Notes: a model not told the origin generated them from the letters alone. DNA of 64,000 nt from an uncultured Candidatus Saccharibacteria bacterium (GCA_964525295.1 CAZGEO010000001.1:504662-568661); one strand, 5' to 3'. Positions 13,140-62,883 are shown, counted from the stretch's first letter. Numbers and translations: made by a program.

Positions 13140-14756
13140 TTATTGTTGGTTGCGCTGCGTAGCAGCGCAACTTTCTATGGAGAGGTGGCCGAGTGGCTGA
13201 AGGCACCTCACTGCTAACGAGGCAAGGATGAAAATCCTTCCCGGGTTCGAATCCCGGCCTCTCCGCCAGTTGTTTGTTATTCGGACTTCCCGAATCTTTA
13301 TTAGTTGAGCAACCACAGGGTTGTATTCAACTCGCACAATTTGTTTATTATCAACGTAAATTCCTTCAAAAAACATTCTCAAATACTTTCTTTTTAGTGT
13401 TGCATCGGCTTTTATATAGCTTGAGAAGATATTTTCAGATAATGACAGTATGCTATCGAGAATCTTTACTTTGTCGGTATGGTCATTCTGAATACTCGCC
13501 AAATCACTCATAGCAACGGATAGCTCATCTTTTAACCTCATATAAATATCCGTAAATTCATCGCTAGATACAATCCTATCCATTCTGTCATCTTCGGCGT
13601 TTTTCATGCGTGTTTTAATCTTCGCAATCCTGTTCTTAATGATTTTTTCTTCTTCTGATTCAGTTTCTCGTACTTCTGCAAGGATTGATTTTGCGGTTTT
13701 AATAACATCTTTCTTAAAGTCTTCCGTAAACTCAATCTTCTTGAATTCTTCGGATACTAACTGCTCTAGTACTTCCATACGGACATAGTTTTTTGAGCAG
13801 TTTTTGCTCTTTTTTCTGCTTTTGCATCCAAAGTAAAAGAATTCCTGTTGTTTTCCGTTTAGGTATTTCTTGATTTTCTGCTCTCCAACAAGTCTTGAAC
13901 CACAGTTACAATAAACATGACCTCTAAGCATGAAATTATGCGTTCTATCACGAGTTCCTTTCACCTTGCGAATATCGAGTAATTGCTGAACAGTATCAAA
14001 TAACTGCTTTGTTATGATTGGTTCATGCTTTCCTTTGTGTAGTTCGCCTTTCCAGTCAAAATCTCCATAATAAATGGGGTTTCTTAACATTCGTGATACT
14101 GCACTTCTTGATATTGGTTTACTCTCTGTTGAAAGCATACCTTTCTTTTGGAGTGTTTCCGTTAAAGAGGTTATAGAATGATCACCACTTGCAAAGAGCT
14201 GAAAGGCGTATAAAACGAGTTTTGCTACATCGGGTACTGGTCTTATATATCTTTTGTGTTTCTCTCCATAATTTTCATATCCGATGGGTGCAAATGTTGG
14301 CCACCAACCATTCTTTATCTTTTGAGAAACACCTTTTTTGACTTCAAAACCGAGATTAGCAGAATAAAACTGTGCTTGAGCCGACATTATTCCCATTAAG
14401 AATTGGTCTGCTGGGTTATCATCGTTGAAATTCTCCGATACTGACATGAGTTTTACTTTTTTGTCATTGAGAATCTTCTTGATAGTCCAAAAATCAGCCA
14501 TATCACGAGATAACCTATCAGACTTATGGATAATAAGTCCATCTACTTCATGTTCTGATATAAAAGAGATCATTTCAAGAAGTGCAGGTCTATCTGCTGT
14601 TCGTGCTGATTTCCCTGCATCTTCAAATTCTTTTACGACTACATATCCGTTAGCTTTCGCAAATTCGTTACATTTTTCACGCTGAAAAGGTAGCGATAAA
14701 TCATGCTTTGCCTGTTCATCTGTGGATACTCTCGTGTATATGACTGCTGTTTTCAT
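13140..14756 (-). CDS. Large serine recombinase (resolvase/invertase N-domain + recombinase domain + zinc-ribbon); the frame continues antisense across the whole tRNA-Ser gene
   Basis: N-terminal YTRVSTDEQ with the catalytic Ser, and DRLSRD. Cys pairs lie in the C-terminal region. The last ~43 codons are the reverse complement of the tRNA. Confidence 0.8.
   Translation of the reverse strand: MKTAVIYTRVSTDEQAKHDLSLPFQREKCNEFAKANGYVVVKEFEDAGKSARTADRPALLEMISFISEHEVDGLIIHKSDRLSRDMADFWTIKKILNDKKVKLMSVSENFNDDNPADQFLMGIMSAQAQFYSANLGFEVKKGVSQKIKNGWWPTFAPIGYENYGEKHKRYIRPVPDVAKLVLYAFQLFASGDHSITSLTETLQKKGMLSTESKPISRSAVSRMLRNPIYYGDFDWKGELHKGKHEPIITKQLFDTVQQLLDIRKVKGTRDRTHNFMLRGHVYCNCGSRLVGEQKIKKYLNGKQQEFFYFGCKSRKKSKNCSKNYVRMEVLEQLVSEEFKKIEFTEDFKKDVIKTAKSILAEVRETESEEEKIIKNRIAKIKTRMKNAEDDRMDRIVSSDEFTDIYMRLKDELSVAMSDLASIQNDHTDKVKILDSILSLSENIFSSYIKADATLKRKYLRMFFEGIYVDNKQIVRVEYNPVVAQLIKIREVRITNNWRRGRDSNPGRIFILASLAVRCLQPLGHLSIESCAATQRNQQ
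13150..13176 (+). terminator. Perfect 9-bp inverted repeat TTGCGCTGC-gta-GCAGCGCAA followed by CTTTCT; possible intrinsic terminator between the DUF4870 gene and tRNA-Ser
   Basis: The palindrome is read directly in the sequence. The U tract is weak, and the hairpin also lies inside the 3' tail of the recombinase reading frame. Confidence 0.35.
13179..13268 (+). tRNA. tRNA-Ser (anticodon GCU) with long variable arm and encoded CCA
   Basis: Acceptor GGAGAGG/CCTCTCC, anticodon loop CUGCUAA (U33, GCU, A37), variable-arm hairpin AAGGATGAAAATCCTT, T-arm CCGGGTTCGAATCCCGG, discriminator G + CCA. Confidence 0.85.
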
Positions 14757-14913
14757 TTTAGGCTTTATTAGGTTTCAATTTAGCTTTTCGCATAGCTTTC
14801 ATTTCCCTTATCATGGCGTAGTAATAATCCTTTTGTGCGTTCACAAAATTTTGGATAAATAAATCGACTGGTTTTAATTTCTTTTTCATATTGTATTAGT
14901 GTTAATAAATAAA

Positions 14914-15023
14914 AAAGGGCGACTCGTTGGACACAACTCTGTATCACAGAATTGTACGAATCGCCCTTTACATCATTTAAACCTAAATGACTAAGGTCTG
15001 TGATACGATTAAGTTGTGTCCAG
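14914..15023. repeat. Two interleaved imperfect inverted repeats upstream of the recombinase gene: AAAGGGCGA/TCGCCCTTT and TTGGACACAAC..GTATCACAGA/TCTGTGATAC..GTTGTGTCCAG
   Basis: Read directly in the sequence. Candidate recombinase-binding or att-like or operator site. The 85-aa track ORF 14780..15037 here is probably spurious. Confidence 0.5.
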
Positions 15024-16001
15024 TTATATCTTACCATAGTTTTGTTTTTCTGTTAATTTTTCTACCTCCTTTTTTATAAAATTAAGTAAATTGAAGTTTT
15101 CGGCGTTCATATTGAGAAATTCTGTACTAAATCCGTTTTGCTCAAAGGTCGCATAATCAATAAAAAGAAATCTATCCTTTTGCAAAAAGTCATCTACAAC
15201 ATAATCAGACATACTGCGAATATCATCTGCCATTGTTACCCCCTTTAAAACAACATTTTTGAAGTTCATACTAGCATGACTCCAACTCCACTGACCTGTA
15301 TATTCAGGCTCAAATACAACAAGGTTTTTAAGCCTTTCTCTTGTGCTTTCGGTGATAAACAGGATATTCGGGTAAGTGTTTACTTTTTGTTGTTTGAGTT
15401 GATCAAAATATTCAAAGTATTTCATGTACTTAACCGCAACATCTTTTGAATACTCTGTTCCTCTGTCGTATTCAATCCAAAATGAAAAGACAATGTTTTC
15501 TATTTGAATTTCAACTTCTGCATCAGGCATTACATATCTTTTGATAATCCTGCCCGATGATGTGTTGCGAAACTGATATTCATACCTTGTAAAATGGTCA
15601 CCTGTAAACTTTCTTAATATTAGGTTGTGTTTTTGGCACTCCCGAAGCAAAAGCAAATACAAATTAGCGACTTTTACTGTATGCTCTAAAGCAAAGAAAT
15701 TCACACCAGTTAGCCTTTCAGGACAATTAATAGAATCCTCACTCACACCTGTACCAGTAGCCAGTTGTTTTGCCCCAAGTCGTGATAAAAATATGATTTT
15801 GGCATTGTTGGTATAGTAGGTCGTTCTAATTAATCCATGCTCCCTTAATCTGTTTACTGTTCTACTAACTGCTTGATAACTTCCGTATAACTTCTTCTCC
15901 AATAAAATCTTAGTCAAAACTTGAAGCGGTAAAAATCTAAAACTATTAACTATCCCTAATATCTGAATATCATTGTACTTTGCAATATAACTTTCTTTCA
16001 T
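15024..16001 (-). CDS. Replication-relaxation family protein (plasmid-type, wHTH N-terminus)
   Basis: N-terminal wHTH (LTKILLEKKLYGSYQAVSRTVNRLREHGLIRT) and a PDAEVEI...FWIEYDRGTE motif typical of the Replication-relaxation family. Confidence 0.55.
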   Translation of the reverse strand: MKESYIAKYNDIQILGIVNSFRFLPLQVLTKILLEKKLYGSYQAVSRTVNRLREHGLIRTTYYTNNAKIIFLSRLGAKQLATGTGVSEDSINCPERLTGVNFFALEHTVKVANLYLLLLRECQKHNLILRKFTGDHFTRYEYQFRNTSSGRIIKRYVMPDAEVEIQIENIVFSFWIEYDRGTEYSKDVAVKYMKYFEYFDQLKQQKVNTYPNILFITESTRERLKNLVVFEPEYTGQWSWSHASMNFKNVVLKGVTMADDIRSMSDYVVDDFLQKDRFLFIDYATFEQNGFSTEFLNMNAENFNLLNFIKKEVEKLTEKQNYGKI

Positions 16002-16033
16002 AATAAAAATAACTAAAAAATTAAATAAAAAAG

Positions 16034-16196
16034 TAAGGTCTGTCGATCACACACTTTTCACAGAACTTAATGTGTAACACACACACATTAATCGTTGTCG
16101 AGGGAGTGATTGGGTGGAAGGCATTAGGAAACGCAGTTTCGCCTTCCACCCAATCAGTCACGAGGTTCTGTAAAAGTGCGACAGACCGTAACTTTC
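16034..16196. repeat. Nested inverted-repeat (cruciform-capable) region: outer arms GGTCTGTCG..CACTTTTCACAGAAC / GTTCTGTAAAAGTGCGACAGACC, palindrome TTAATGTGT-aacac-ACACATTAA, inner perfect 13-bp IR TTGGGTGGAAGGC / GCCTTCCACCCAA
   Basis: Read directly in the sequence. It is located just downstream of the Rep-like gene inside the element. Candidate element origin, oriT or a structured RNA. Confidence 0.55.
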
Positions 16197-16286
16197 GTGT
16201 TTGACAACATGGTGAGAAACTGGATTCATAGAAACGCCCTTTTCGGTAGGATACATTCAACATTTAATCAATCATGGTTTTCATAG

Positions 16287-17075
16287 TTAAAATTTAGATT
16301 TTTCTAAGAATTTAGCTCTCATTGTTTCAAGTTTTGACAGTTGCTCTTTGCGTTTTCGTTTCTCCTGTAAATCTTTGAGAGTTTTAACAAACAACCCTGC
16401 TGGGTTTGAGAGTGGTTTTGTTCCATCAACTTGAGCAGTGCGAATTTGAGTTCTTGTGAAAATTAAAGCATCTGTAACATCATCGGAATTAACAATTCCT
16501 TTGTTCTTTTGGCTGATTAGCTTTTGGTAGTATTTAATGCTTTTAAGGTAGTTTAGCTCTTTAGCGATTTCTACTGCTTCTTCTGAAAAAGATTTAAAAT
16601 CATCGTTTAACGTTAACTTATTATTTTTAATCTTTTCTTCTTCAACTTTATATTCTTTGTAGGTCAAATTTGACTCACCTTGATGTGTCAATTCTGAAAC
16701 ATCTGGTTGTTGCAATTCTGACACATCCGCAAGACTATCGAGTTTTTCAGCATATATTTCTGATATTGGCTCAAGAATATACAAGTTTGTTTTATTAAGT
16801 CCTCTTGTTTTCCAAGACATAAGCCCACGACTTCTAAGCTCATCTAATCCTCTAAATATTGAACTTCTACTTTTACCGATTGTTTCTGCTAGTTTATTTT
16901 GTCCTGGAAAACAATAATTTTTGTTCATAGCGTATTTGAGAAGTGCCAAATATACTCTAACTGCAAGATCTGAAAGCAATCTATCTTCTGTTATTAAATG
17001 ACTAATTTGAGCAAATCCGTATTGCTTTTCAAAATCTCGAAATATTACTTTGTCTTGCTTATCGGTCATTTTCAT
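16287..17075 (-). CDS. HTH-domain replication-initiator-like protein (DnaD/replisome-organizer-like N-terminus)
   Basis: The N-terminal VYLALLKYAMNKN...NKLAETIGKSRSSIFRGLDELRSRGLM resembles Rep/DnaD-type wHTH. The C-terminus is charged. Confidence 0.45.
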   Translation of the reverse strand: MKMTDKQDKVIFRDFEKQYGFAQISHLITEDRLLSDLAVRVYLALLKYAMNKNYCFPGQNKLAETIGKSRSSIFRGLDELRSRGLMSWKTRGLNKTNLYILEPISEIYAEKLDSLADVSELQQPDVSELTHQGESNLTYKEYKVEEEKIKNNKLTLNDDFKSFSEEAVEIAKELNYLKSIKYYQKLISQKNKGIVNSDDVTDALIFTRTQIRTAQVDGTKPLSNPAGLFVKTLKDLQEKRKRKEQLSKLETMRAKFLEKSKF

Positions 17076-17254
17076 GTACTTTTCGTTTTTGTAAATAACT
17101 TGCTTTTTCGAAGTAGCTCAATTGCTGATTTAGACTTCTCCTGCTTTCCAATTAATCGGCTATAACCTAATTGTTCAAAACAAAGCAAAACCCATTCACG
17201 AATGAATAGTTCTCTTGCGGTCATAGGTTTTGTTTTTTGTTTCTCTTTTGCCAT
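17072..17254 (-). CDS. Small basic hypothetical protein (60 aa), translationally coupled (ATGA overlap) to the downstream Rep-like gene
   Basis: 4-nt start/stop overlap with 16287..17075. Confidence 0.4.
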   Translation of the reverse strand: MAKEKQKTKPMTARELFIREWVLLCFEQLGYSRLIGKQEKSKSAIELLRKSKLFTKTKST

Positions 17255-17257
17255 TTT

Positions 17258-17335
17258 TAAAACAAAAAAAGAGGTCTAAATCAAAAAGGCTGTAAGCGTT
17301 ACGCTTAACAAATGACCTTTAAGACTTAGACCTCT
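17258..17335 (-). terminator. Intrinsic terminator: 10-bp perfect stem AGAGGTCTAA/TTAGACCTCT (with inner GCGTAACGC hairpin) followed on the minus strand by U7-rich tract
   Basis: Plus-strand aacaaaaaaagaggtctaa...ttagacctct, downstream of gene 17384..17599. Confidence 0.5.
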
Positions 17336-17383
17336 CTACAACTCAACTAAGGGTAGCTGAGGGCTAATATCTAAATTATTTAC

Positions 17384-17599
17384 TTATTGTTTCGTTTTTC
17401 TTTTACCTGTTTTTATATGTAATATCGTGCTATCAATTCTTTTGTTTGATATTTTAATTTCGTAAGTTCCAAATTCAAATTTTACGAATTCTTCAATGAT
17501 TTTCTTGAGATCTTCCAAGTGGATATTATAGATTTCAGGGCTTTGTAATAGCTCAAGAAATTGTTTTTTGAGTTCAAGTGATATTTTAGATTGTGTCAT
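17384..17599 (-). CDS. Hypothetical small protein (71 aa)
   Basis: 14-nt overlap with the upstream ORF and the same orientation as the element genes. Confidence 0.4.
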   Translation of the reverse strand: MTQSKISLELKKQFLELLQSPEIYNIHLEDLKKIIEEFVKFEFGTYEIKISNKRIDSTILHIKTGKRKTKQ

Positions 17600-18365
17600 A
17601 TGAGATATTTTTGTCTAATAAATCTAAATAATCCGTACTATCGCTATCTGTTTTCATAGCGTAATTCTTGTAAATCATTAACGGCTCTAAATACTCAATA
17701 CTTGATACTCCATCAACTATTGAAACTCGTTTAAAACCCTCTTGTTTGAGGTACTCGTTATCAGTACGAAGTACTGAAAAGATATTTGCTTCTTGAGTTG
17801 TTAAGTTCTTTTTAGGGATTAAAACAACATAGAATGGGTCAAGTTTTGAGTGGTAATAGTCAAATATTGTAAGTTTCCAACATGGAATTGAGACTTTTTG
17901 AGTGTATACAGTCATTTCTTCAATAACTGGGAGGGCTACAAACAGCTTTTTATTAAGTCTGAGGTTGTATAGGACTCTTTCTTCCATTGGAGTATTTTCA
18001 ACTGGTTTTGGTGGCAATTGGCTTGAAAAATAGTTATATACATGGATTCGTATTTCATCATGTTTATATCCTCGTTTAAATAATTGGTGAATGTACCATA
18101 TCATCATTGGTACTTTAATTTTGTGATAGCCTACTGTACCACCAAGAGCAGAGGTTAAGCCCATTTTCTTTGCAGAGGGAAGAAAGCTATGTCGGGAGTA
18201 GTAAATGAGTTTCTTTCTATCACATTCAATGTTCCAAGAGCTTTTTATGATTAAATCGACAACTGTATCTGAGGATAGATCGTATCTATTTGTTGTATCG
18301 GAGACTAAACCCCATTCATACATTTGTTTTACGAAGTTACTAATTGTTTTATCTAAGATATTCAT
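17586..18365 (-). CDS. Hypothetical protein (259 aa), element-encoded
   Basis: Long ORF with no recognisable motif. Confidence 0.5.
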   Translation of the reverse strand: MNILDKTISNFVKQMYEWGLVSDTTNRYDLSSDTVVDLIIKSSWNIECDRKKLIYYSRHSFLPSAKKMGLTSALGGTVGYHKIKVPMMIWYIHQLFKRGYKHDEIRIHVYNYFSSQLPPKPVENTPMEERVLYNLRLNKKLFVALPVIEEMTVYTQKVSIPCWKLTIFDYYHSKLDPFYVVLIPKKNLTTQEANIFSVLRTDNEYLKQEGFKRVSIVDGVSSIEYLEPLMIYKNYAMKTDSDSTDYLDLLDKNISYDTI

Positions 18366-18580
18366 AGTATCGAGTTAAATATATCAATGTTTGTCACTAT
18401 ACTAATATATACCACTCAAAATAGTTTGTCAATAAATTTGCTATGTTTTACACTCAAGCTCAAAACTAAGAAACTAAGTATAAATTTAAAGCTTCGCTTT
18501 CTTATTATAATGTCGTTTCAGGTAAAATTGGGTAATGTATAAGCCGATTTAATACGGGAATAATTAATTATTAAAACAAA

Positions 18581-19657: not shown

Positions 19658-19682
19658 ATCTGTGTTGAGTTATACTTATGTT

Positions 19683-21269
19683 ATGTCAGAACAGATAAAA
19701 CGTATTGTTAAATCAGGCAATCCCTTTCTTATTTATCATAATTCTGAAAATGAGACGGCGTTAGTGATTCCTGCAGAATTCATGACTGAAGCAAAATATA
19801 GATTATTTCGAGAATATGCAACCTCTGATGTCGCAATGATGTTTCCTGTAGACATTGCAGAAAGTCTTGGAATCGAGTACATCTCAGACGCACTATTTCT
19901 TAGTGCAGAATACGATTCAATTGTAGATAGTGCAGTAAGAAAATCTCACGCTGGACCAACCCTCGATTTAAAAAGTGTTGAAACAGGAAGTGCTGATGCG
20001 GACAAGGTCAAGACAATAACAAGATTTGCAGAAGTTATATCTTCTCAGAACTTCACAGATTTTTTCAATGAATTCTCAATACCAGGGCATGTTAGAACTT
20101 ATCTTGCCGACCAAGATTTATTAGATGGGCGTAGTGGTCACACTGAGTTAGGTGTATACTTGTCACTTTACACACAGCTTTCAGGTGTCGTATGTATGGT
20201 GACTATTAGAGATAAGGTAACTGGAAAACCATTCAACCTTATTGAGTCGGAGCGTTTTGCAGAAAAAAATAATTACACAATCTTCTATGAGAATGATATT
20301 TTAGACCTATATAGACGGGAGTTTTTACCTTACTGTAAAGCGTCGTTTGAGCAAAAGCAAAACAAGATTATTGAAGATTATAGAAAACTACTAGATATCA
20401 GAAAGTTTGAACAAACCTTAGAAAAGTTGTTTAAAAGTCAAAAAATTCGAGGTTCCTATCATTTAGCCATTGGACAAGAGGCAACAGGAGTGGCTTTAGG
20501 TAAAGTCATTAGCTTGAAAGAAGGAGATAGCGCATTTGTAACACATAGGGGACATCATATTGCTCTCGGTTTAGGGTTAAATAGTCGAGATTTTTTCTTT
20601 GAATGTATTGGAAGTGAACAAGGTCTAAACAACGGGAGATCTGGTCCTATGCACTTTTTTTACAAGCCTAATGGATTAATAAGCGCGAATGGTATTGTAG
20701 CTGCAAATGCACCTATTGCTGCAGGTCTTGCACTGTCAAACAAGCTTAAAAATAATAATAACGTAGTTGTTAATGTTGTAGGAGAAGGCTCCTTAGATGA
20801 AGGAGTCGTGCATGAAACATTGACAGATATGAAAATATGGGGAATTCCATTGATAATACTATGTGAAAATAATTTTTATTCTCAGTCTACGGTAATTGAA
20901 AAACATTTGCCATATGAGAGAGTCACAACAGCGATGCGACAGTTTTACGGCATCAAAGTAGAAAGAATCGAAAATGGTACCGATTTAATTCATTTACAAA
21001 AAAGGCTTAATCATATTGTAGGATGGGTAAGAAAAAATAAAATGCCGGTTTTTGTTGAAATTCAAACATATCGCCAATGTGGACATTCGATGAGTGATAC
21101 TGAGCAAAGTTATATGGATCCGAGTTTAGATTCTGCTTGGCTTAGAAAAGACCCGGTAAGCTTATTGAAACAGTATATTTTAAATCATAATCTTTCAAAT
21201 AACGCTGCTTTAGAAAAGATAGAATCAGAAGTTATAGAATTTTATATGAATCTAGAAACACAAGTATGA
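19683..21269 (+). CDS. Fusion protein: degenerate RibB-like (3,4-dihydroxy-2-butanone-4-phosphate synthase-like) N-domain + TPP-dependent 2-oxoacid dehydrogenase E1 alpha subunit
   Basis: The N-terminal ~200 aa align to RibB (PGHVRTYLADQDLLDGRSGHTE) but the acidic DDEDRENEGD motif is replaced by YHNSENETAL. The C-terminal E1-alpha has YHLAIGQEA, GSEQGLNNGRSGPMH and a TPP motif GEGSLDEG...ENNFY. The likely leaderless start is ATG 19683 (TATACT 6 nt upstream); the track start is 19662. Confidence 0.7.
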   Translation: MSEQIKRIVKSGNPFLIYHNSENETALVIPAEFMTEAKYRLFREYATSDVAMMFPVDIAESLGIEYISDALFLSAEYDSIVDSAVRKSHAGPTLDLKSVETGSADADKVKTITRFAEVISSQNFTDFFNEFSIPGHVRTYLADQDLLDGRSGHTELGVYLSLYTQLSGVVCMVTIRDKVTGKPFNLIESERFAEKNNYTIFYENDILDLYRREFLPYCKASFEQKQNKIIEDYRKLLDIRKFEQTLEKLFKSQKIRGSYHLAIGQEATGVALGKVISLKEGDSAFVTHRGHHIALGLGLNSRDFFFECIGSEQGLNNGRSGPMHFFYKPNGLISANGIVAANAPIAAGLALSNKLKNNNNVVVNVVGEGSLDEGVVHETLTDMKIWGIPLIILCENNFYSQSTVIEKHLPYERVTTAMRQFYGIKVERIENGTDLIHLQKRLNHIVGWVRKNKMPVFVEIQTYRQCGHSMSDTEQSYMDPSLDSAWLRKDPVSLLKQYILNHNLSNNAALEKIESEVIEFYMNLETQV

Positions 21270-39261: not shown

Positions 39262-40101
39262 GTGAGAAGACAAGAAGTGCCTACTCCTGAACGGAAATTG
39301 TGTACAGAAAATTGGTGGGTTCGTAGTGTAGATAAATTGTGGCGTTTTCTGGGCTTCTATCGCTGTGCTGGATGCGATAAGTTTTCGTACACTCTTTGTA
39401 ACACATGTTGTGACAGATTGACCTTTGCTGTGCCTACTTGTTGTCGTTGCGGAAAATTTTCAAGGAATGGTACGATTCACCAAATCTGTGTACCTAATTC
39501 GCAATTCTATCAAAAAACAATATCATTTTTCTCATACACAAAAGTTGTAAAAAGTCTTTTTGCTGCCTATAAGTTTCGGCGACAATTTCAATATCAGCAG
39601 GTATTAGCCGAGTTAATCAAACAATACTTTTTGCTTGACCCTTTTCATTTATTGTCGTGTAACTTTAATTCTGGCGACAAAATTGCACTTATACCTGTGC
39701 CAATGCACAAAAGAAAGCAGAGTGACCGTGGATTTTCACCAGCATATGAACTCACTCTCCTACTCTACCGTGAATTCTTTCAGAATTTTAGCAACGAAAT
39801 TGAAATTTTTGGGCATACTATAACCAAAGTAACTGACAGTTCTGCTCAGTCTTCGCAGAAGCACCGTAATAGGATGCTTTCACTTCAGCGGTCTATACAA
39901 ATTTTGCCAGAAAATGTGTCGGAAGCTTCGCGACTTCTAAAATTCGCACCAACAAAACTTGTTATTGTCGATGACATTTTAACTACTGGCGCGACCGCAA
40001 CGGTTGTTATTGAATCTTTAGCAAAAAATTTACCAGAACTATGCAAAAACACAGAACGAATAGTAATAACGTTTGCTAGAAGCGATAAAAAGCTTTACTA
40101 G
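39262..40101 (+). CDS. ComF-family protein (N-terminal zinc-finger + phosphoribosyltransferase domain)
   Basis: CAGCDKFSY..CNTCC..CCRCGKF and PRPP-binding VIVDDILTTGATAT. Confidence 0.75.
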   Translation: MRRQEVPTPERKLCTENWWVRSVDKLWRFLGFYRCAGCDKFSYTLCNTCCDRLTFAVPTCCRCGKFSRNGTIHQICVPNSQFYQKTISFFSYTKVVKSLFAAYKFRRQFQYQQVLAELIKQYFLLDPFHLLSCNFNSGDKIALIPVPMHKRKQSDRGFSPAYELTLLLYREFFQNFSNEIEIFGHTITKVTDSSAQSSQKHRNRMLSLQRSIQILPENVSEASRLLKFAPTKLVIVDDILTTGATATVVIESLAKNLPELCKNTERIVITFARSDKKLY

Positions 40102-43100
40102 ACAACAATTTTCAGTTGTAGCGGTGTTTTTTCTGCGCCTACTTCAACAGTCGTAAAACCTGCGCCTTCAGGAGAAGTTGCTAGGATACTAACTTCACTT
40201 AAGAATGTCGTTGTTGCCAACTTTTCCTGATACTTGTTAATCATTTCATTGAGTTTTTTCTCTTCGCTGTAAACTTCAAGTTTTGCTCTTTGTCCAATTG
40301 CAAGGTTAGCATTCTTTCTAGCTGCCTGAACAGCACGAGAAATCTCGCGCAGTAGCCCCATCTCTGCAAGTTCTGGCGTAATCTCAGTTTCGAGCCCAAT
40401 AGTAACATCCTTTTCTGATTTGGTAACAATAGTAGTTGATTCTGGCATTACTTCAACCATTTCTACTGATTGCACATTGAGTTCTTCAGCGATTAAATCG
40501 AGATATTCCTGCTCAAGTTTCTTGTCAGCCTGATACATTACTTTTTGGAGAGGTTGCTTCAATGCTAATGCTTTTTCAACACGAATGTTCTGCCCGAGTG
40601 AGGCAACTTCACGAGTAAATTCCATTGTGGTTAACGCCTTTTCTTCTGCGGTTGTCAAAGCATTCACTTCTGGATACAACTCAAGATGCACAGATTCAAG
40701 CGTTAAGACAGTTGGTGCACCTTTTCTCAATTCTTGATAAATGTAATCGGCTATAAATGGCACTATGGGAGCAAAGATTTTTGCCACTGAAACAAGAACC
40801 GAAAAGAGCGTTTGTAACGCAGCTTTATCACCTGCAACGAATCTTTCTCGTGAACGACGAATGTACCACGTAGAAATGTCATCTATAAGAGGTTTTATCT
40901 CAGAAACAGCCTTTGGTACATGATAGGAACTTAGATGTTTATCAATATCAATGGCGGTCTTTTTAATTCGTGCAAGTACCCATTCATCGAGAACAGTTGG
41001 GGTAACTTTCGTTTCTGTAGCGTCAAAATTGTGTTGATTAGCGTATAGAGCGAAATATTTGTACACATTCATAAGTGGGAGTAAAACGTCTTTTATCGGC
41101 TGCGCAATTGCTTCTTCTGAAACGTTCAGATCTTCGCCAACCGGAAGAACGCTACCTGCGACATAAACTCTAAATGCATCTCCCCCATATTTTTCAATTA
41201 CTCCCTTTGGATCAGGATAATTCTTGAGACTCTTGCTCATCTTTCTGCCGTCAGTACCTTTGATAGTTCCTGTTACGATGACATTCTTAAACGCATTCGA
41301 TTTGAAAAGAATTGTTGAAACAACGTGCATGACATTGAACCACGCTCTTGTTTGTCCAACATATTCGATAACGAAATCTCCTGGGAAATTGTTTTCAAAT
41401 TTCTCTTTATTTTCGAAAGGATAGTGATATTGAGCAAAAGGCATTGATGCCGATTCAAACCAACAGTCTAAAACTTCTGGGACTCGTGTCATCGTACCTT
41501 TCTGGCATTCTTCACATTTCCACGTATGCGTATCAATGTATGGACGATGCAGGTTGTCTATTTTCTTTCCTGATTTTGCTTCAATTTCTGCAATTGAGCC
41601 CATGACTTCACGATGGTGACAGGTTGGTTCGGAACATTCCCAAATAGGCATAGGTGTCGCCCAGTAGCGGGTTCGTGAAAGTCCCCAATCAGGGAAGGTT
41701 TTGATCGCTTCGCTGAATCTACCGTATTTTAGATGTTCTGGAACCCAGTTGATGTTTTCGTTGTTTGCAAAAAGTTGCTCCTTTATCTGTTGAATATCGA
41801 CATACCAAGCGCCTTGAGCCTTGTAAACAAGTGGCGTTTTACAGCGATAACAGATTGGATAACTGTGAGTGATTCTCTCCTCTTTGTATAAAATACCTCG
41901 TTCCTTTAGATTCTCGGTTATTGCTGGATCAGCCTTTTTGAAATAAATGCCCGCATAATCGGCTACTTCTGAAATAAACTTTCCTTCATCATCAATGGTT
42001 TCGTGCATCGAAAGGCCAATTTCTTTTCCTAGTGCGGTATCATCTTCACCGAATCCTGGTGCCATGTGAATGATTCCCGTACCATCTTCAATACTGACGA
42101 AATCTGCGTGATAGATTTTGAAATCCTTGTCACCTGCTGGGAAGTAGTTGAACAGCGGTTTGTAGGTATTGCCAACTAATTCTTTACCTTTATAGGTATC
42201 AACTACCGTAAAGGGAGTTTCCTTTAACACTTTTTCTACTAAATTTGCAGCGAGAATGACATATTCCTCACCAATTTTGGCGGTAACGTAGTCTTGTTCT
42301 TTATCTACAACAAGTGCTGTATTGGCCGGCAGCGTCCATGGAGTCGTTGTCCAGGCCATTACAGAAACCTTAGGTTTGCTAATGTTAGGCTCTACTGTTT
42401 GCTCATTGATAATTGAAGATTGATAATTAACAATTGAGGGTTTGTTCTCTAGGATGTCTTTCAAGCAGTTCCTTGTTGGAATATGCATGTCGTTCCATGG
42501 AATATCGTTTTTGTCGAACCATTCAATGTTTTTATCAAGTCCCGCTTCGTCGGTAACTTTAATGTCACCTGTAACTTTCGCCTTAAAATGGTGAGTCTTG
42601 AACAATCTACCTTCGAAAATATCGATTGCGTAACCATAATATTCAAGAGCAGCAATATCGCAACCTATCTCCTCTTTAATCTCTCGGGCAACCGTGTTTT
42701 TTAAGTCGCCATTATCTTGCTCTTCATATTTTCCCCCGACGATTCCGTATACTCTATCTCGACCAGGTTCGTTTCTGCGAATCATCATTACTTGGCCCTT
42801 TTCATTTTCAATAACAACACCTGCGCCAACTCCGGTTTTGTAGTAATTCAATTCGAATTTAACAAAGACGGCTGGATCTTCCAGATCTGCATACGAGTTA
42901 TCCATTGCAATCTCGAAGTTAGAAAGTGGAGTTCCACATCGAGTGCAGTACAAAGAAACTCGTTTTCCTTGATAGACAAGCCCTTTTTCGAAGAATTGTT
43001 TGAAAACCCACATAACGGTTTCCATGTAATTCAAATCCATTGTTCGGTAGGGCTTTTTCATGTCAACCCAACGTGCAATTCTGTCGATATACCATTCCCA

Positions 43101-43505
43101 TTCACCAGAAACGTCGGTTACGTAGGAATAGCAAGAATCGATAAATTGTTGGATACCAATCTTAGTTTCGATCTCACGACGATTTTTAGTTTCGAATTTG
43201 CGTTCAACAATTTCTTCAATTGGCAAACCGTGACAGTCCCATCCCCAAACGCGTTTTACTCTCTTTCCTTTCATTGTTTGATAGCGAGGAACGATGTCTT
43301 TTATGATACTTCCGAGTAAGTGTCCGTAGTGAGGAAGTCCTGTAACGAATGGAGGCCCATCATAGAAAATGAAATGATCTTTTTCAGAACGGCTGGTAAT
43401 AGATTTCTCAAAAATGGAGTTTGATTTCCAATAATCAAGTATCGGTTGTTCCACCTCGTTGTAAAACGAGCGTACATTGGGAACTGAAAAAGAAGATTTA
43501 GTCAT
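40098..43505 (-). CDS. ileS: Isoleucyl-tRNA synthetase (type 2, eukaryote-like C-terminus) carrying a ~150-aa NUDIX-hydrolase insertion (about 42381-42833) between the catalytic-core Zn-knuckle region and the CP1 editing domain
   Basis: HIGH = PHYGHLLGS, KMSKS = KMSKSLKNYP, CP1 WTTTPWTLPAN. The insert holds a Nudix box GIVGGKYEEQDNGDLKNTVAREIKEEIGC. The gene is leaderless (TATAAT 5 nt before the ATG). Confidence 0.9.
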   Translation of the reverse strand: MTKSSFSVPNVRSFYNEVEQPILDYWKSNSIFEKSITSRSEKDHFIFYDGPPFVTGLPHYGHLLGSIIKDIVPRYQTMKGKRVKRVWGWDCHGLPIEEIVERKFETKNRREIETKIGIQQFIDSCYSYVTDVSGEWEWYIDRIARWVDMKKPYRTMDLNYMETVMWVFKQFFEKGLVYQGKRVSLYCTRCGTPLSNFEIAMDNSYADLEDPAVFVKFELNYYKTGVGAGVVIENEKGQVMMIRRNEPGRDRVYGIVGGKYEEQDNGDLKNTVAREIKEEIGCDIAALEYYGYAIDIFEGRLFKTHHFKAKVTGDIKVTDEAGLDKNIEWFDKNDIPWNDMHIPTRNCLKDILENKPSIVNYQSSIINEQTVEPNISKPKVSVMAWTTTPWTLPANTALVVDKEQDYVTAKIGEEYVILAANLVEKVLKETPFTVVDTYKGKELVGNTYKPLFNYFPAGDKDFKIYHADFVSIEDGTGIIHMAPGFGEDDTALGKEIGLSMHETIDDEGKFISEVADYAGIYFKKADPAITENLKERGILYKEERITHSYPICYRCKTPLVYKAQGAWYVDIQQIKEQLFANNENINWVPEHLKYGRFSEAIKTFPDWGLSRTRYWATPMPIWECSEPTCHHREVMGSIAEIEAKSGKKIDNLHRPYIDTHTWKCEECQKGTMTRVPEVLDCWFESASMPFAQYHYPFENKEKFENNFPGDFVIEYVGQTRAWFNVMHVVSTILFKSNAFKNVIVTGTIKGTDGRKMSKSLKNYPDPKGVIEKYGGDAFRVYVAGSVLPVGEDLNVSEEAIAQPIKDVLLPLMNVYKYFALYANQHNFDATETKVTPTVLDEWVLARIKKTAIDIDKHLSSYHVPKAVSEIKPLIDDISTWYIRRSRERFVAGDKAALQTLFSVLVSVAKIFAPIVPFIADYIYQELRKGAPTVLTLESVHLELYPEVNALTTAEEKALTTMEFTREVASLGQNIRVEKALALKQPLQKVMYQADKKLEQEYLDLIAEELNVQSVEMVEVMPESTTIVTKSEKDVTIGLETEITPELAEMGLLREISRAVQAARKNANLAIGQRAKLEVYSEEKKLNEMINKYQEKLATTTFLSEVSILATSPEGAGFTTVEVGAEKTPLQLKIVV

Positions 43506-61083: not shown

Positions 61084-62883
61084 ATGCAGCGAACAATTTC
61101 ATCTCAACTCCTTCCTCTTGCAGGTCAAAAAGCACGCGTTGAAGGGTGGTTACATAACTTCAGGGAACTCGGAAAAATCGGTTTTTTGATACTTCGAGAT
61201 CGTGGTGGGTTGGTACAGGTAGTTGTTGATAACGCTGATTCGTTAAAGAAAATTAAGGATTTGCAACCAGGTTCAGTAATTCGAGCAATTGGTGAAGTAA
61301 AAGAAACAAAGGCAACAGACAATAAAGTGGAACTCGTGAATCCAGAAATTGAGGTGTTGGTTCCTATTCATGAAATTCCACCGGTCGCATATAACAAGAA
61401 GGGGCTTGATGTAAATATTGATACTGAGCTTGATTATCGTCCTTTGGTTATTCGCAACTTGAAGAAACAAGCGATATTTCGAGCGCAGGCAGTTATATTG
61501 CAAAAGTTCGCAGAATCACTACGGAATCAAGGGTTTACCGAATTTCGTTCCCCGGTTTTGATGAATGCGCCGTCTGAAAGTGGAGCAAGCGTTTTTGAAG
61601 TTAATTATTTTGAAGGAAAGGCATATCTTGCACAATCACCGCAAATATATAAGCAGATTATGGTTACTGCGTTTGAGCGCGCATTTTGCGTTGGTACGGT
61701 ATTTAGAGCAGAGAAACACAATACAACAAGGCACTTGATGGAGATTACTCAGATGGACGCAGAAATGGGCTTCATTGAGAATTATGATGAAGCAATGGAA
61801 GTAGCAGAAACCGTCATTCGTGACATTATGACTGCTGTTTCGTCACAATTCGAGAAAGAATTGGCAGAATATGGCGTAGATTTGCCCAAATTGCCGACAG
61901 AAAGATTTCCAAAAGTGAAAGTTAAAGAAGCATTGAAGATTATTGAAGAGCGCATCGGAAAAAGCGCAGCACGTGAAGAATTGGATCTTGATCCAGAAGA
62001 TGAGCGAGAATTAAGTAAATGGGCCCTAGAAAAGTTTAATTCAGACTTTTTGTGGGTACTGAACTTTAAAGGAAACAAGAACTTTTACACTTGGGATAAT
62101 CCAGAAGATGCAGAAGAATCATTGAGTTTTGACCTCGAGTTTCGAGGACTTGAAATGTTGTCTGGAACTCATCGTATTCATGATTATGAAAAACTACATG
62201 AAAGATTCTTGAAACAGGGGTTAACTGAAGCTTACTACGAACATTATTTTCAGGCCTTCAAATACGGTATGCCATCTGAAGCTGGATTTTCTTTCGGTCT
62301 AGAACGTTTGACCATGAAATTGTTCAACTTGCCGAATGTTCGAGAGGCTACATTGTTCCCTTCAGATTTGAAGCGAATAGCTGCAATGAACAGAATAAAG
62401 GAAGTTATCAAAGGTGAAAAAGAAGTTGTCGCTAAAATTAAGCAAATTCTCGATACTCGCGCGATGGAGTACACTTTCGAAGAACATGAAGCTGTACAAA
62501 CTAGTGAAGAAGCTGCAGCTTTGCGTGGCGTTCCTCTCTCTTCTGGAGCTAAAGCGCTCATTCTCAAGGGAAAAAAGAGCAGTAAGCATGTTATGGTTGT
62601 TGTTCCTGGAGATAAAAAACTCGATATGCGGGCAGTATCTGAAAAGGTCGGTGAAAAAGTTGAATTTGAAAAACCTGAAGCTATTCTCGATACTTACGGT
62701 ATTATGGTCGGTGGCGTGCCTCCATTCGGTAACGTTCTCGGAATGCGAGTGTTGCTAGATGAAAATGTTGCCAATAATCCAAAAGTTTCGTTTAATGCAG
62801 GAATGCGAACGTGCTCGATTTCGATGAATGGTGCAGATCTTGCCGAGGCAAATGAGGGAGAAATTGGGAAATTTAGTGCCTAG
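61084..62883 (+). CDS. Archaeal/eukaryotic-type aspartyl/asparaginyl-tRNA synthetase fused to a C-terminal YbaK/ProX-like aminoacyl-tRNA deacylase domain (about 62416-62883)
   Basis: N-terminal OB fold, class II motifs (QSPQIYKQ, FRAEKHNTTRHLMEITQMD, GLERL). C-terminal KALILKGKK..KHVMVVVPGDKKLDMRAVSEKVGEKVEF..PE....GIMVGGVPPFG....VLLDE....VSFNAG matches YbaK. Leaderless (TTATAAT 6 nt upstream). Confidence 0.8.
   Translation: MQRTISSQLLPLAGQKARVEGWLHNFRELGKIGFLILRDRGGLVQVVVDNADSLKKIKDLQPGSVIRAIGEVKETKATDNKVELVNPEIEVLVPIHEIPPVAYNKKGLDVNIDTELDYRPLVIRNLKKQAIFRAQAVILQKFAESLRNQGFTEFRSPVLMNAPSESGASVFEVNYFEGKAYLAQSPQIYKQIMVTAFERAFCVGTVFRAEKHNTTRHLMEITQMDAEMGFIENYDEAMEVAETVIRDIMTAVSSQFEKELAEYGVDLPKLPTERFPKVKVKEALKIIEERIGKSAAREELDLDPEDERELSKWALEKFNSDFLWVLNFKGNKNFYTWDNPEDAEESLSFDLEFRGLEMLSGTHRIHDYEKLHERFLKQGLTEAYYEHYFQAFKYGMPSEAGFSFGLERLTMKLFNLPNVREATLFPSDLKRIAAMNRIKEVIKGEKEVVAKIKQILDTRAMEYTFEEHEAVQTSEEAAALRGVPLSSGAKALILKGKKSSKHVMVVVPGDKKLDMRAVSEKVGEKVEFEKPEAILDTYGIMVGGVPPFGNVLGMRVLLDENVANNPKVSFNAGMRTCSISMNGADLAEANEGEIGKFSA

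Follow-up and report, generated by a model that had tools for sequence, protein, structure and literature searches.

What is the function of a large nested inverted repeat (IR) that lies between two genes of a small integrated element in a member of the Saccharibacteria? The question concerns a 64,000-nucleotide stretch of DNA from an uncultured Candidatus Saccharibacteria bacterium (GCA_964525295.1 CAZGEO010000001.1:504662-568661), which we refer to at its full length as the window. An original prediction had seen three palindromes at positions 16034-16196 of this stretch, between a Rep-like gene and a replication-relaxation gene, and had proposed that they form an origin of replication or of transfer (ori/oriT), or else a structured regulatory RNA. 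Based on the sequence of the locus, its relatives in other genomes, and the parallel with an enterococcal site, we consider it fairly probable that the nested IR is the oriT of a small integrative mobilizable element of Saccharibacteria/Patescibacteria.

A three-way junction upstream of a relaxase-like gene

All three palindromes were found where they had been placed, in a 285-bp gap between two minus-strand genes (16287-17075 and 15024-16001) that encode HTH_36 and Replic_Relax proteins, respectively. Together they form a structure of 151 bp (window 16037-16187), which is a three-way junction: an outer stem encloses two neighbouring hairpins, here named A and B. The parts of the structure and its immediate surroundings are as follows, in window coordinates.

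16287-17075, minus strand: Rep-like initiator, 262 amino acids (aa), HTH_36; resembles phage O-like/DnaD-like replication initiators
16188-16286: conserved spacer from the rep stop codon to the structure, 87-94% identical in close relatives
16165-16187: right arm of the outer stem, GTTCTGT, AAAAGTG, CGACAGACC
16104-16159: hairpin B, arms GAGTGATTGGGTGGAAGGC (16104-16122) and GCCTTCCACCCAATCAGTC (16141-16159), spacer 18 nt
16095-16115, minus strand: near-invariant core, ACCCAATCACTCCCTCGACAA, from the 3' base of hairpin B into the junction
16067-16091: hairpin A, TTAATGTGT (16067-16075), 7-nt loop AACACAC, ACACATTAA (16083-16091)
16037-16066: left arm of the outer stem, GGTCTGTCG, 6-nt bulge ATCACA, CACTTTT, 1-nt bulge C, ACAGAAC
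16002-16036, minus strand: A/T-rich leader from the structure to the relaxase start codon
15024-16001, minus strand: relaxase candidate, 325 aa, Pfam Replic_Relax (PF13814)

The outer stem comprises 23 bp in three blocks (GGTCTGTCG/CGACAGACC, CACTTTT/AAAAGTG and ACAGAAC/GTTCTGT), interrupted by bulges of 6 nt and 1 nt; its length agrees with the outer arms of ~23 bp that had been predicted. Hairpin A includes a (GT)n tract. The arms of hairpin B match at 95% over 19 nt and perfectly over 16 nt (TGATTGGGTGGAAGGC/GCCTTCCACCCAATCA), and its spacer itself forms a 5-bp mini-hairpin (GAAAC-GCA-GTTTC, 16128-16140). The 13-bp inner repeat of the original prediction (TTGGGTGGAAGGC/GCCTTCCACCCAA) is contained in this longer repeat, with a spacer of 18 nt rather than 19 nt. 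The description of the palindromes as coaxial needs correction, as they are not concentric: the two inner hairpins stand side by side within the outer stem. In the predicted fold, TC and CGA of CTCCCTCGAC pair with the 5' flank TCG-N-GA and the conserved CCT is left as a bulge. We propose the core at 16095-16115 as the recognition/nick region.

Fold prediction, which had been suggested as a check on the locus, returned this three-way junction with exceptional stability. Using RNA parameters, the minimum free energy (MFE) of the plus strand was -82.7 kcal/mol compared to -40.6 +/- 4.0 kcal/mol for dinucleotide shuffles (z -10.5), and that of the minus strand was -77.9 kcal/mol (z -8.4); none of 200 shuffles matched the MFE of the structure on either strand. 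With DNA parameters the z-scores were -10.5 and -13.2. The G+C content of the structure is 0.47 versus ~0.33 in the surrounding kilobases.

Conservation and covariation of the junction

Related loci were gathered by profile search (55 loci), by exact-protein look-up (13), and from IMG/VR (one). The comparative set consisted of 24 loci, i.e., the window and 23 relatives with relaxase identities of 35-93%; individual loci are designated by L numbers. The motif C[TC]CCCTCGAC occurred exactly once per locus in 24/24, at 81-228 nt upstream of the relaxase ATG, and once in the 64-kb window (0.05 occurrences expected). A lack of conservation near homologous genes had been named beforehand as the outcome that would speak against the prediction; instead, the repeat recurred upstream of the homologous relaxase gene at every one of these loci, with covariation.

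The relatives share a recurring layout of a long outer stem, hairpin B, the core CTCCCTCGAC[AT]A and usually a second hairpin with a GTGTGT tract, in a structure of 135-179 bp. On the minus strand, the nearly invariant core reads ACCCAAYCACTCCCTCGAC[AT]A, and the columns ACC.A..C.CTCCCTCGAC.A were invariant in 18 sequences. The base of hairpin B is TGATTGGGT/ACCCAATCA or a close variant. Outer stems range from 10 to 35 bp (most 16-35 bp), and their sequences are unrelated between groups yet still complementary, as exemplified by GGTCTGTCG.../...CGACAGACC, ATACTTATCCTACTTAAA/TTTAAGTAGGATAAGTAT, CTCTTGTCCA/TGGACAAGAG and GTTCCTATCGCC/GGCGGTAGGAAC.

Given that full-structure alignments with MAFFT put divergent outer stems out of register, formal pair counting was limited to hairpin B and the outer stems were compared sequence by sequence. 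In the 18-sequence alignment, 91.8% of the hairpin B cells were paired and both-sided changes affected 10 of the 19 pairs (24 cells). This degree of covariation was reached by none of 500 shuffles, and controls in which the arms were slid paired at 31-44%. Hairpin A shows a compensatory change in L064 (TTAATGTGT/ACACATTAA to TTATTGTGT/ACACAATAA) and has other versions in L018, L061, L062 and L006; it is degenerate in L059, L066 and L067. For nine diverse representatives, DNA-parameter z-scores ranged from -7.5 to -14.2 over both strands.

No other segment of the element is as well conserved as the structure, which is 98-99.3% identical between the window and seven relatives, compared to 72-88% for the relaxase, 70-91% for the rep and 61-90% for the recombinase genes of the same relatives. 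In L064, the structure is 91% identical to that of the window and every gene is 62-70% identical. The leader is 88-97% identical among close relatives and holds a weak A/T-tract repeat of low complexity (12-bp period, three copies, score 44; 16000-16036). The spacer at 16188-16286 contains GTTGTCAAA, common to L064, L065 and partly L018; the spacer could be a site bound by the winged helix of the relaxase or by an accessory protein.

A separate feature was seen in the distal part of hairpin B of L005, L061, L068 and L069, which carries a common insert, ATTCCCT[TA]CGGCAGGCTA..CGCCTGTC. The ATTCCCT[TA] insert is kept across elements of Dojkabacteria and Saccharibacteria, whose relaxases are only ~40-45% identical to that of the window.

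The neighbouring gene encodes a predicted MOB_C-type relaxase

The 325-aa protein scored 40.0 bits against the Replic_Relax model (cutoff 25.3), on which the pAM373 TraX homologue scored 27.1 bits. By profile it is a member of the MOB_C/Replic_Relax family, with a predicted core of the PD-(D/E)XK type. To our knowledge, there is no solved MOB_C structure for comparison. In the AlphaFold2 model (predicted local distance difference test, pLDDT, 90), the N-terminal domain matches MarR/PadR-type winged helices, consistent with a MarR_2 match at residues 34-59, and an alpha-beta5-alpha-beta core follows. Seven residues were invariant over 27 homologues (E106, H107, D135, D160, E177, D179 and K191). 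A tblastn search of the relaxase against plasmids returned a single weak match, in Paenibacillus.

PF13814 proteins are typed as MOB_C by CONJscan (Coluzzi 2017, PMC5357655), and their fold is that of a PD-(D/E)XK nuclease, usually fused to a helix-turn-helix domain (Steczkiewicz 2012, PMC3424549). MOB_C relaxases are PD-(D/E)XK enzymes with an N-terminal winged helix (PMC3424549, PMC12857230, PMC6736028), the studied members being TraX of pAD1 and MobC of CloDF13 (PMC12857230, PMC6736028). Of 109 relaxases counted in Patescibacteria, 58 are MOB_C, more than of any other class; oriT is never mentioned in that study (PMC12102498).

The junction accompanies the relaxase gene in relatives with an intervening ATPase gene

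In most loci the structure lies between the rep and relaxase genes, so that a link to either cannot be separated there. The two are separated in L061, L062, L068 and L069, where a gene for an ATPase of 864-878 aa intervenes between rep and the structure. In these four relatives, the structure is directly upstream of the relaxase gene and 2.6 kb from rep. The ATPase genes (DUF8128) are located as follows.

L061: 2043-4667
L062: 2179-4773
L068: 1974-4595
L069: 2024-4660

The ATPases carry weak but convergent signatures of type IV coupling proteins (T4CPs), with matches to TrwB_AAD_bind (21.6 bits, cutoff 20.5), TraG-D_C (21.6 bits, cutoff 22), DUF87 (30 bits) and FtsK_SpoIIIE. They probably represent a divergent coupling-protein family of Patescibacteria elements. 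The resulting gene order in the four relatives is T4CP-IR-relaxase; in the window itself, rep is upstream.

A further locus, L072 (IMGVR_UViG_3300028241_002699, classed as viral by IMG/VR), holds an orphan copy of the junction at 2428-2566, with an identical hairpin B base and core and no Replic_Relax gene. An EcoRI-type methylase gene lies upstream of this copy, and downstream are a 139-aa, weakly Rep_O-like protein, an orf85-like segment and a serine recombinase. A copy without its own relaxase gene is what one would expect of a cis site on which proteins can act in trans, as in an oriT-only element.

The same observations bear on the alternative that the structure is a replication origin of the nick type, at which the Replic_Relax protein nicks the core for rolling-circle or sigma-type replication of the excised element, or else the origin that the HTH_36 Rep uses. 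This is rather unlikely. The relaxase does match phrog_9381, 'replication initiation by nicking' (E 1.6e-7), the name of the Pfam family spans replication as well as relaxation (pUA140 reference), the structure is just downstream of rep in most loci, and the L072 copy, in a contig devoid of a relaxase gene, precedes a Rep_O-like gene. However, where the 2.6-kb ATPase gene intervenes the structure accompanies the relaxase gene and not rep, and the Rep_O-like protein of L072, where the core is identical, has no sequence relationship to the HTH_36 Rep. Moreover, the structure is richer in G+C than its flanks and has no iterons, DnaA boxes or unwinding element; candidate iterons are found inside rep instead (16663-16727). 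Finally, the characterised members of the family are relaxases.

Comparison with known transfer origins

We compared the junction with transfer origins of other systems. The site resembles, as far as an analogy can carry, the oriTs on which TraX acts in Enterococcus (pAD1 oriT2 and pAM373 oriT) in position, size, and nested perfect symmetry. The IR arrangement was compared in pAM373 and pTW9, both typed as MOBC by PLSDB. The order in these plasmids is a T4CP gene (TraM-recognition domain), five direct repeats of 11-12 bp, the IR, and the replication-relaxation gene. Their IR is a nested, perfect repeat of 142 bp with inner arms of 25 nt and outer arms of 18 nt, and it is ~92% conserved in >230 plasmids, while the adjacent repeats differ. 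In work attributed to Francia and Clewell (2002), the IR region of the pAM373 type was reportedly defined by experiment as an oriT that TraX nicks within the large inverted repeat. Its role as a MOB_C oriT has been summarised in a review (PMC12857230).

The likeness has several parts. In both systems, the site is intergenic and upstream of a Replic_Relax/MOB_C gene, with a T4CP-like gene upstream in four of the relatives studied here; it is a large, nested, essentially perfect IR (142 bp in pAM373, 151 bp here); and it is better conserved than the neighbouring sequence. There are also differences. The two share no sequence similarity, the enterococcal IR is one long interrupted hairpin and not a three-way junction, and the array of five 11-12-bp direct repeats that serves as the TraX binding site has no counterpart here. 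The distance from the IR to the relaxase start is about 300-600 nt there and 35-150 nt here. Furthermore, pAD1 and pAM373 are conjugative enterococcal plasmids, whereas the element described here is integrative, encodes a serine recombinase, is ~5 kb in size and resides in a CPR host (CPR, candidate phyla radiation, i.e., Patescibacteria). Since both the direct-repeat array and sequence homology are absent, we do not assign the site to the enterococcal oriTs as a homologue, but treat it as a candidate new oriT family of the same general kind.

One short sequence occurs in both groups. In the enterococcal oriTs, the inner IR arm is immediately succeeded by the hexamer ACTACG (TTTTGCA followed by ACTACGAAAA; L056, pAM373, around 14404-14409; L070, pTW9, 1609-1614), which in many CPR elements comes right behind the core (CCCTCG followed by ACTACGG). 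The common hexamer may be due to chance or may be a shared remnant of a nick region.

Other systems offer partial parallels. CloDF13 MobC/MobB, the MOB_C prototype of Enterobacteria, has a relaxase of the same family by Pfam/CONJscan; the comparison covers the relaxase, and CloDF13 is a small mobilisable Gram-negative plasmid with its own T4CP (MobB). The streptococcal Rel_PF13814/MobC integrative mobilizable elements (Coluzzi et al. 2017, PMC5357655) are likewise small and integrated, with an integrase and a PF13814 relaxase and without mating-pore genes, but belong to a different phylum and have a different gene set; the text consulted defines no oriT. In the oriTs of HUH relaxases (R388, RP4, F), where an IR precedes a conserved nic region, the proximal hairpin arm together with the conserved sequence on its 3' flank forms the recognition/nick region, as we propose here. 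The enzyme in the window, however, belongs to a class other than the HUH/tyrosine relaxases, and the IR here is nested and of far greater size.

Several observations weigh against an oriT. No ~five direct repeats of 11-12 bp were present between 15500 and 16700, apart from the weak A/T-tract periodicity of the leader, and blastn of 15990-16300, run in line with the earlier suggestion to search plasmid and phage origins, found no match in 72,556 plasmids or 50,697 phages. The relaxase and the pAM373 TraX homologue share a Pfam family only, with a non-significant direct profile comparison (E 0.07). To these are added the phrog_9381 match and the L072 copy, which stands upstream of a small Rep_O-like gene and not of a relaxase gene. 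The 64-kb window encodes no type IV secretion system (T4SS), and the element's own replication origin was not located. Lastly, when 25 distant Replic_Relax loci of other phyla were surveyed, no upstream hairpin stood out consistently: with gene starts that are possibly imprecise, an upstream hairpin ranked first in 1/25 loci and among the top five in 5/25. Large IRs may not be universal in the Replic_Relax family, or the gene starts may account for this result.

A probable DNA-level palindrome rather than an RNA element

Whether the junction acts as DNA or as RNA was addressed from the composition of its base pairs. In the MFE structures of 11 diverse elements, the sense strand formed 615 Watson-Crick and 30 G-T pairs and the antisense strand 630 Watson-Crick and 18 G-T pairs. 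Using DNA parameters, the strand antisense to the genes was slightly more stable in 13/13 elements, by a small margin. At the gathering threshold, Rfam recognised only the tRNA-Ser in the whole window, and a permissive scan of 15900-16400 returned only chance-level miRNA models (E 0.39-9.6). The same interval contained no terminator-like site, which bears out the earlier remark that the locus has no T-tract and is not a simple terminator, and no promoter above chance was found around the structure. With few wobble pairs, no asymmetry between the strands such as would be expected of a transcribed RNA, and no Rfam, terminator or promoter match, the structure looks like a DNA-level palindrome that can extrude from either strand or fold in single-stranded DNA.

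An 80-aa open reading frame (ORF) overlapping the structure (16021-16263, minus strand) was rejected as a gene because it has no family match, the stop-free stretches of relatives vary in strand and length, and the stems covary at the DNA level.

A cis-acting RNA in a rep-relaxase co-transcript, controlling relaxase expression as an attenuator, processing site, stabiliser or antisense RNA, is in our assessment unlikely. The structure is probably transcribed, since it lies between co-oriented genes and ends ~35 nt before the relaxase start codon, and its predicted RNA fold is very stable. Against this stand the Rfam results, the rarity and strand symmetry of G-U pairs, and the lack of a U-tract or of a promoter or terminator framing the structure. 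In addition, relaxase-specific regulation leaves unexplained both the invariant, single-copy core beside a nuclease gene and the retention of the structure upstream of another gene in L072.

The fold could alternatively act as a single-strand initiation site resembling the single-strand origins (sso) and single-strand initiation (ssi) signals of plasmids, such that the junction would arise solely in the single strand being transferred or displaced and would attract RNA polymerase or primase for synthesis of the complementary strand, while the nick would lie elsewhere. We regard this as quite improbable. Plasmid single-strand origins are of similar size to the large imperfect palindrome of about 150 nt seen here, and like ssoA/ssoU and ssi signals such a palindrome could act as folded single-stranded DNA; the slightly greater stability of the antisense strand points in the same direction. 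Yet those signals are strand-specific and carry characteristic motifs, whereas here the two strands are nearly alike in folding, wobble pairs are not biased toward either of them, and no ssoA-type motifs (RS_B, CS-6) were recognised on inspection by eye. The conserved block adjoins a gene of a nuclease family, the 20-nt invariant core at the base of the hairpin better fits a nuclease recognition site, and the element has no HUH rolling-circle Rep.

That the structure serves recombination, as attP of the serine recombinase or in multimer resolution, is very improbable: the recombinase gene is 1.2 kb away and TraX is reported to recombine two oriT copies (PMC5714925), but L062 retains the structure without a nearby recombinase gene and in the integrated element the structure is intact and internal, with the crossover at the tRNA end, so that it is not the crossover site and attP was rejected.

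Proposed mechanism of transfer

Between the functions originally suggested, oriT is thus best supported, by the MOB_C neighbour, by the structure staying with the relaxase gene and by the pAM373/pAD1 parallel, and a regulatory RNA is disfavoured. If the junction is an oriT, the serine recombinase would first excise the element as a supercoiled circle. The MOB_C-type relaxase (winged helix plus PD-(D/E)XK) would then recognise the base of hairpin B and the core, either in DNA extruded as a cruciform or three-way junction or in DNA folded once single-stranded, and would nick one strand, site- and strand-specifically, in or beside the core. A coupling protein, encoded directly upstream in some relatives and otherwise supplied by a helper, would pass the nicked strand to a T4SS. 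In the recipient, the refolded junction could aid re-circularisation and priming of the complementary strand.

The integrated element and its genes

The structure is part of an element that is delimited as follows in the window.

about 13243-18450, minus strand: integrated element of ~5.2 kb, its extent being the region homologous to related elements in other genomes
13140-14756, minus strand: large serine recombinase (element integrase), with its 3' end antisense through tRNA-Ser
13179-13268: tRNA-Ser(gct)

Downstream of the relaxase gene, an ORF of 85 aa is followed by the large serine recombinase gene. The GC content drops at 15-19 kb of the window, and the remainder of the window encodes chromosomal housekeeping functions, including methionyl-tRNA synthetase (MetRS), DnaG, FtsK, MurJ, isoleucyl-tRNA synthetase (IleRS), an ATP-dependent ligase and aspartyl-tRNA synthetase (AspRS). 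The span of homology (13243-18450) and these housekeeping flanks together identify the locus as an integrated element of ~5.2 kb. Relatives occur in metagenome-assembled genomes of Saccharibacteria and Dojkabacteria, where they adjoin tRNA-Ser genes of four different anticodons and, once, a tRNA-Asp gene, which indicates repeated independent integrations. None of the whole-contig loci was a circular (excised or plasmid) contig, and NCBIfam gave 0 matches for all proteins of the element.

The recombinase ORF runs antisense through the 3' half of tRNA-Ser and ends in a C-terminal '...GRDSNPG...', with homology to other elements starting inside the tRNA at 13243. It is unusual for a serine integrase to target a tRNA and to have the att region within the end of its own coding sequence (window 13140-13268; L001-L005, L016-L018, L059).

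The linker region of rep (16663-16727) contains two direct copies of GATGT[GT]TCAGAATTG and a 20-nt palindrome, such that 'DVSEL' of the HTH_36 Rep is encoded twice. These repeats may be the internal iteron origin (oriV) of the element, in the style of lambda O. A hairpin with 20-bp arms followed by a T-run (17270-17335, minus strand) lies after a 71-aa gene; it is probably an intrinsic terminator that divides the element into two transcription units.

Outside the element, three housekeeping genes of the window encode unusual domain fusions: an IleRS with an inserted NUDIX domain (40098-43505, minus strand), an AspRS with a C-terminal YbaK-type tRNA_edit domain (61084-62883, plus strand), and a DHBP_synthase fused to a dehydrogenase E1 component (19662-21269, plus strand).

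Implications for gene transfer in Patescibacteria

T4SSs are almost universal in Patescibacteria, whereas relaxases are few and no transfer origins have been described (PMC12102498). On these grounds it was proposed that the T4SSs of CPR bacteria are not used for conjugation (PMC12102498). MOB_C relaxases of Patescibacteria were already known; what the present sequence analysis adds is a candidate oriT for them and a compact tRNA-targeting element, neither of which we found for Patescibacteria in the literature searched. An oriT is an ordinary kind of site and would not surprise a plasmid biologist, yet it is undescribed for Saccharibacteria. The candidate has exact boundaries, is strongly conserved and adjoins a gene of the relaxase class most often seen in the phylum, which opens the question of conjugation in CPR bacteria to direct testing. 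The locus also provides a second, sequence-unrelated case of a MOB_C gene with a large nested IR, in this example without a direct-repeat binding array. In addition, the compact element, which encodes a Rep as well as a serine integrase directed at tRNA genes, is a source of components for shuttle or integrative vectors, for use where genetic manipulation is still very difficult.

A bolder extension, which we hold to be doubtful but worth stating, is that the junction serves as a shared cis hub of widespread tRNA-targeting elements of Patescibacteria, at which a PD-(D/E)XK relaxase would read an extruded three-way junction and not a direct-repeat array of the TraX type. If this were true, the elements would supply a ready-made cassette of oriT, relaxase, Rep and integrase for CPR genetics, and the chromosomal, apparently relaxase-less T4SSs of CPR bacteria would indeed conjugate DNA.

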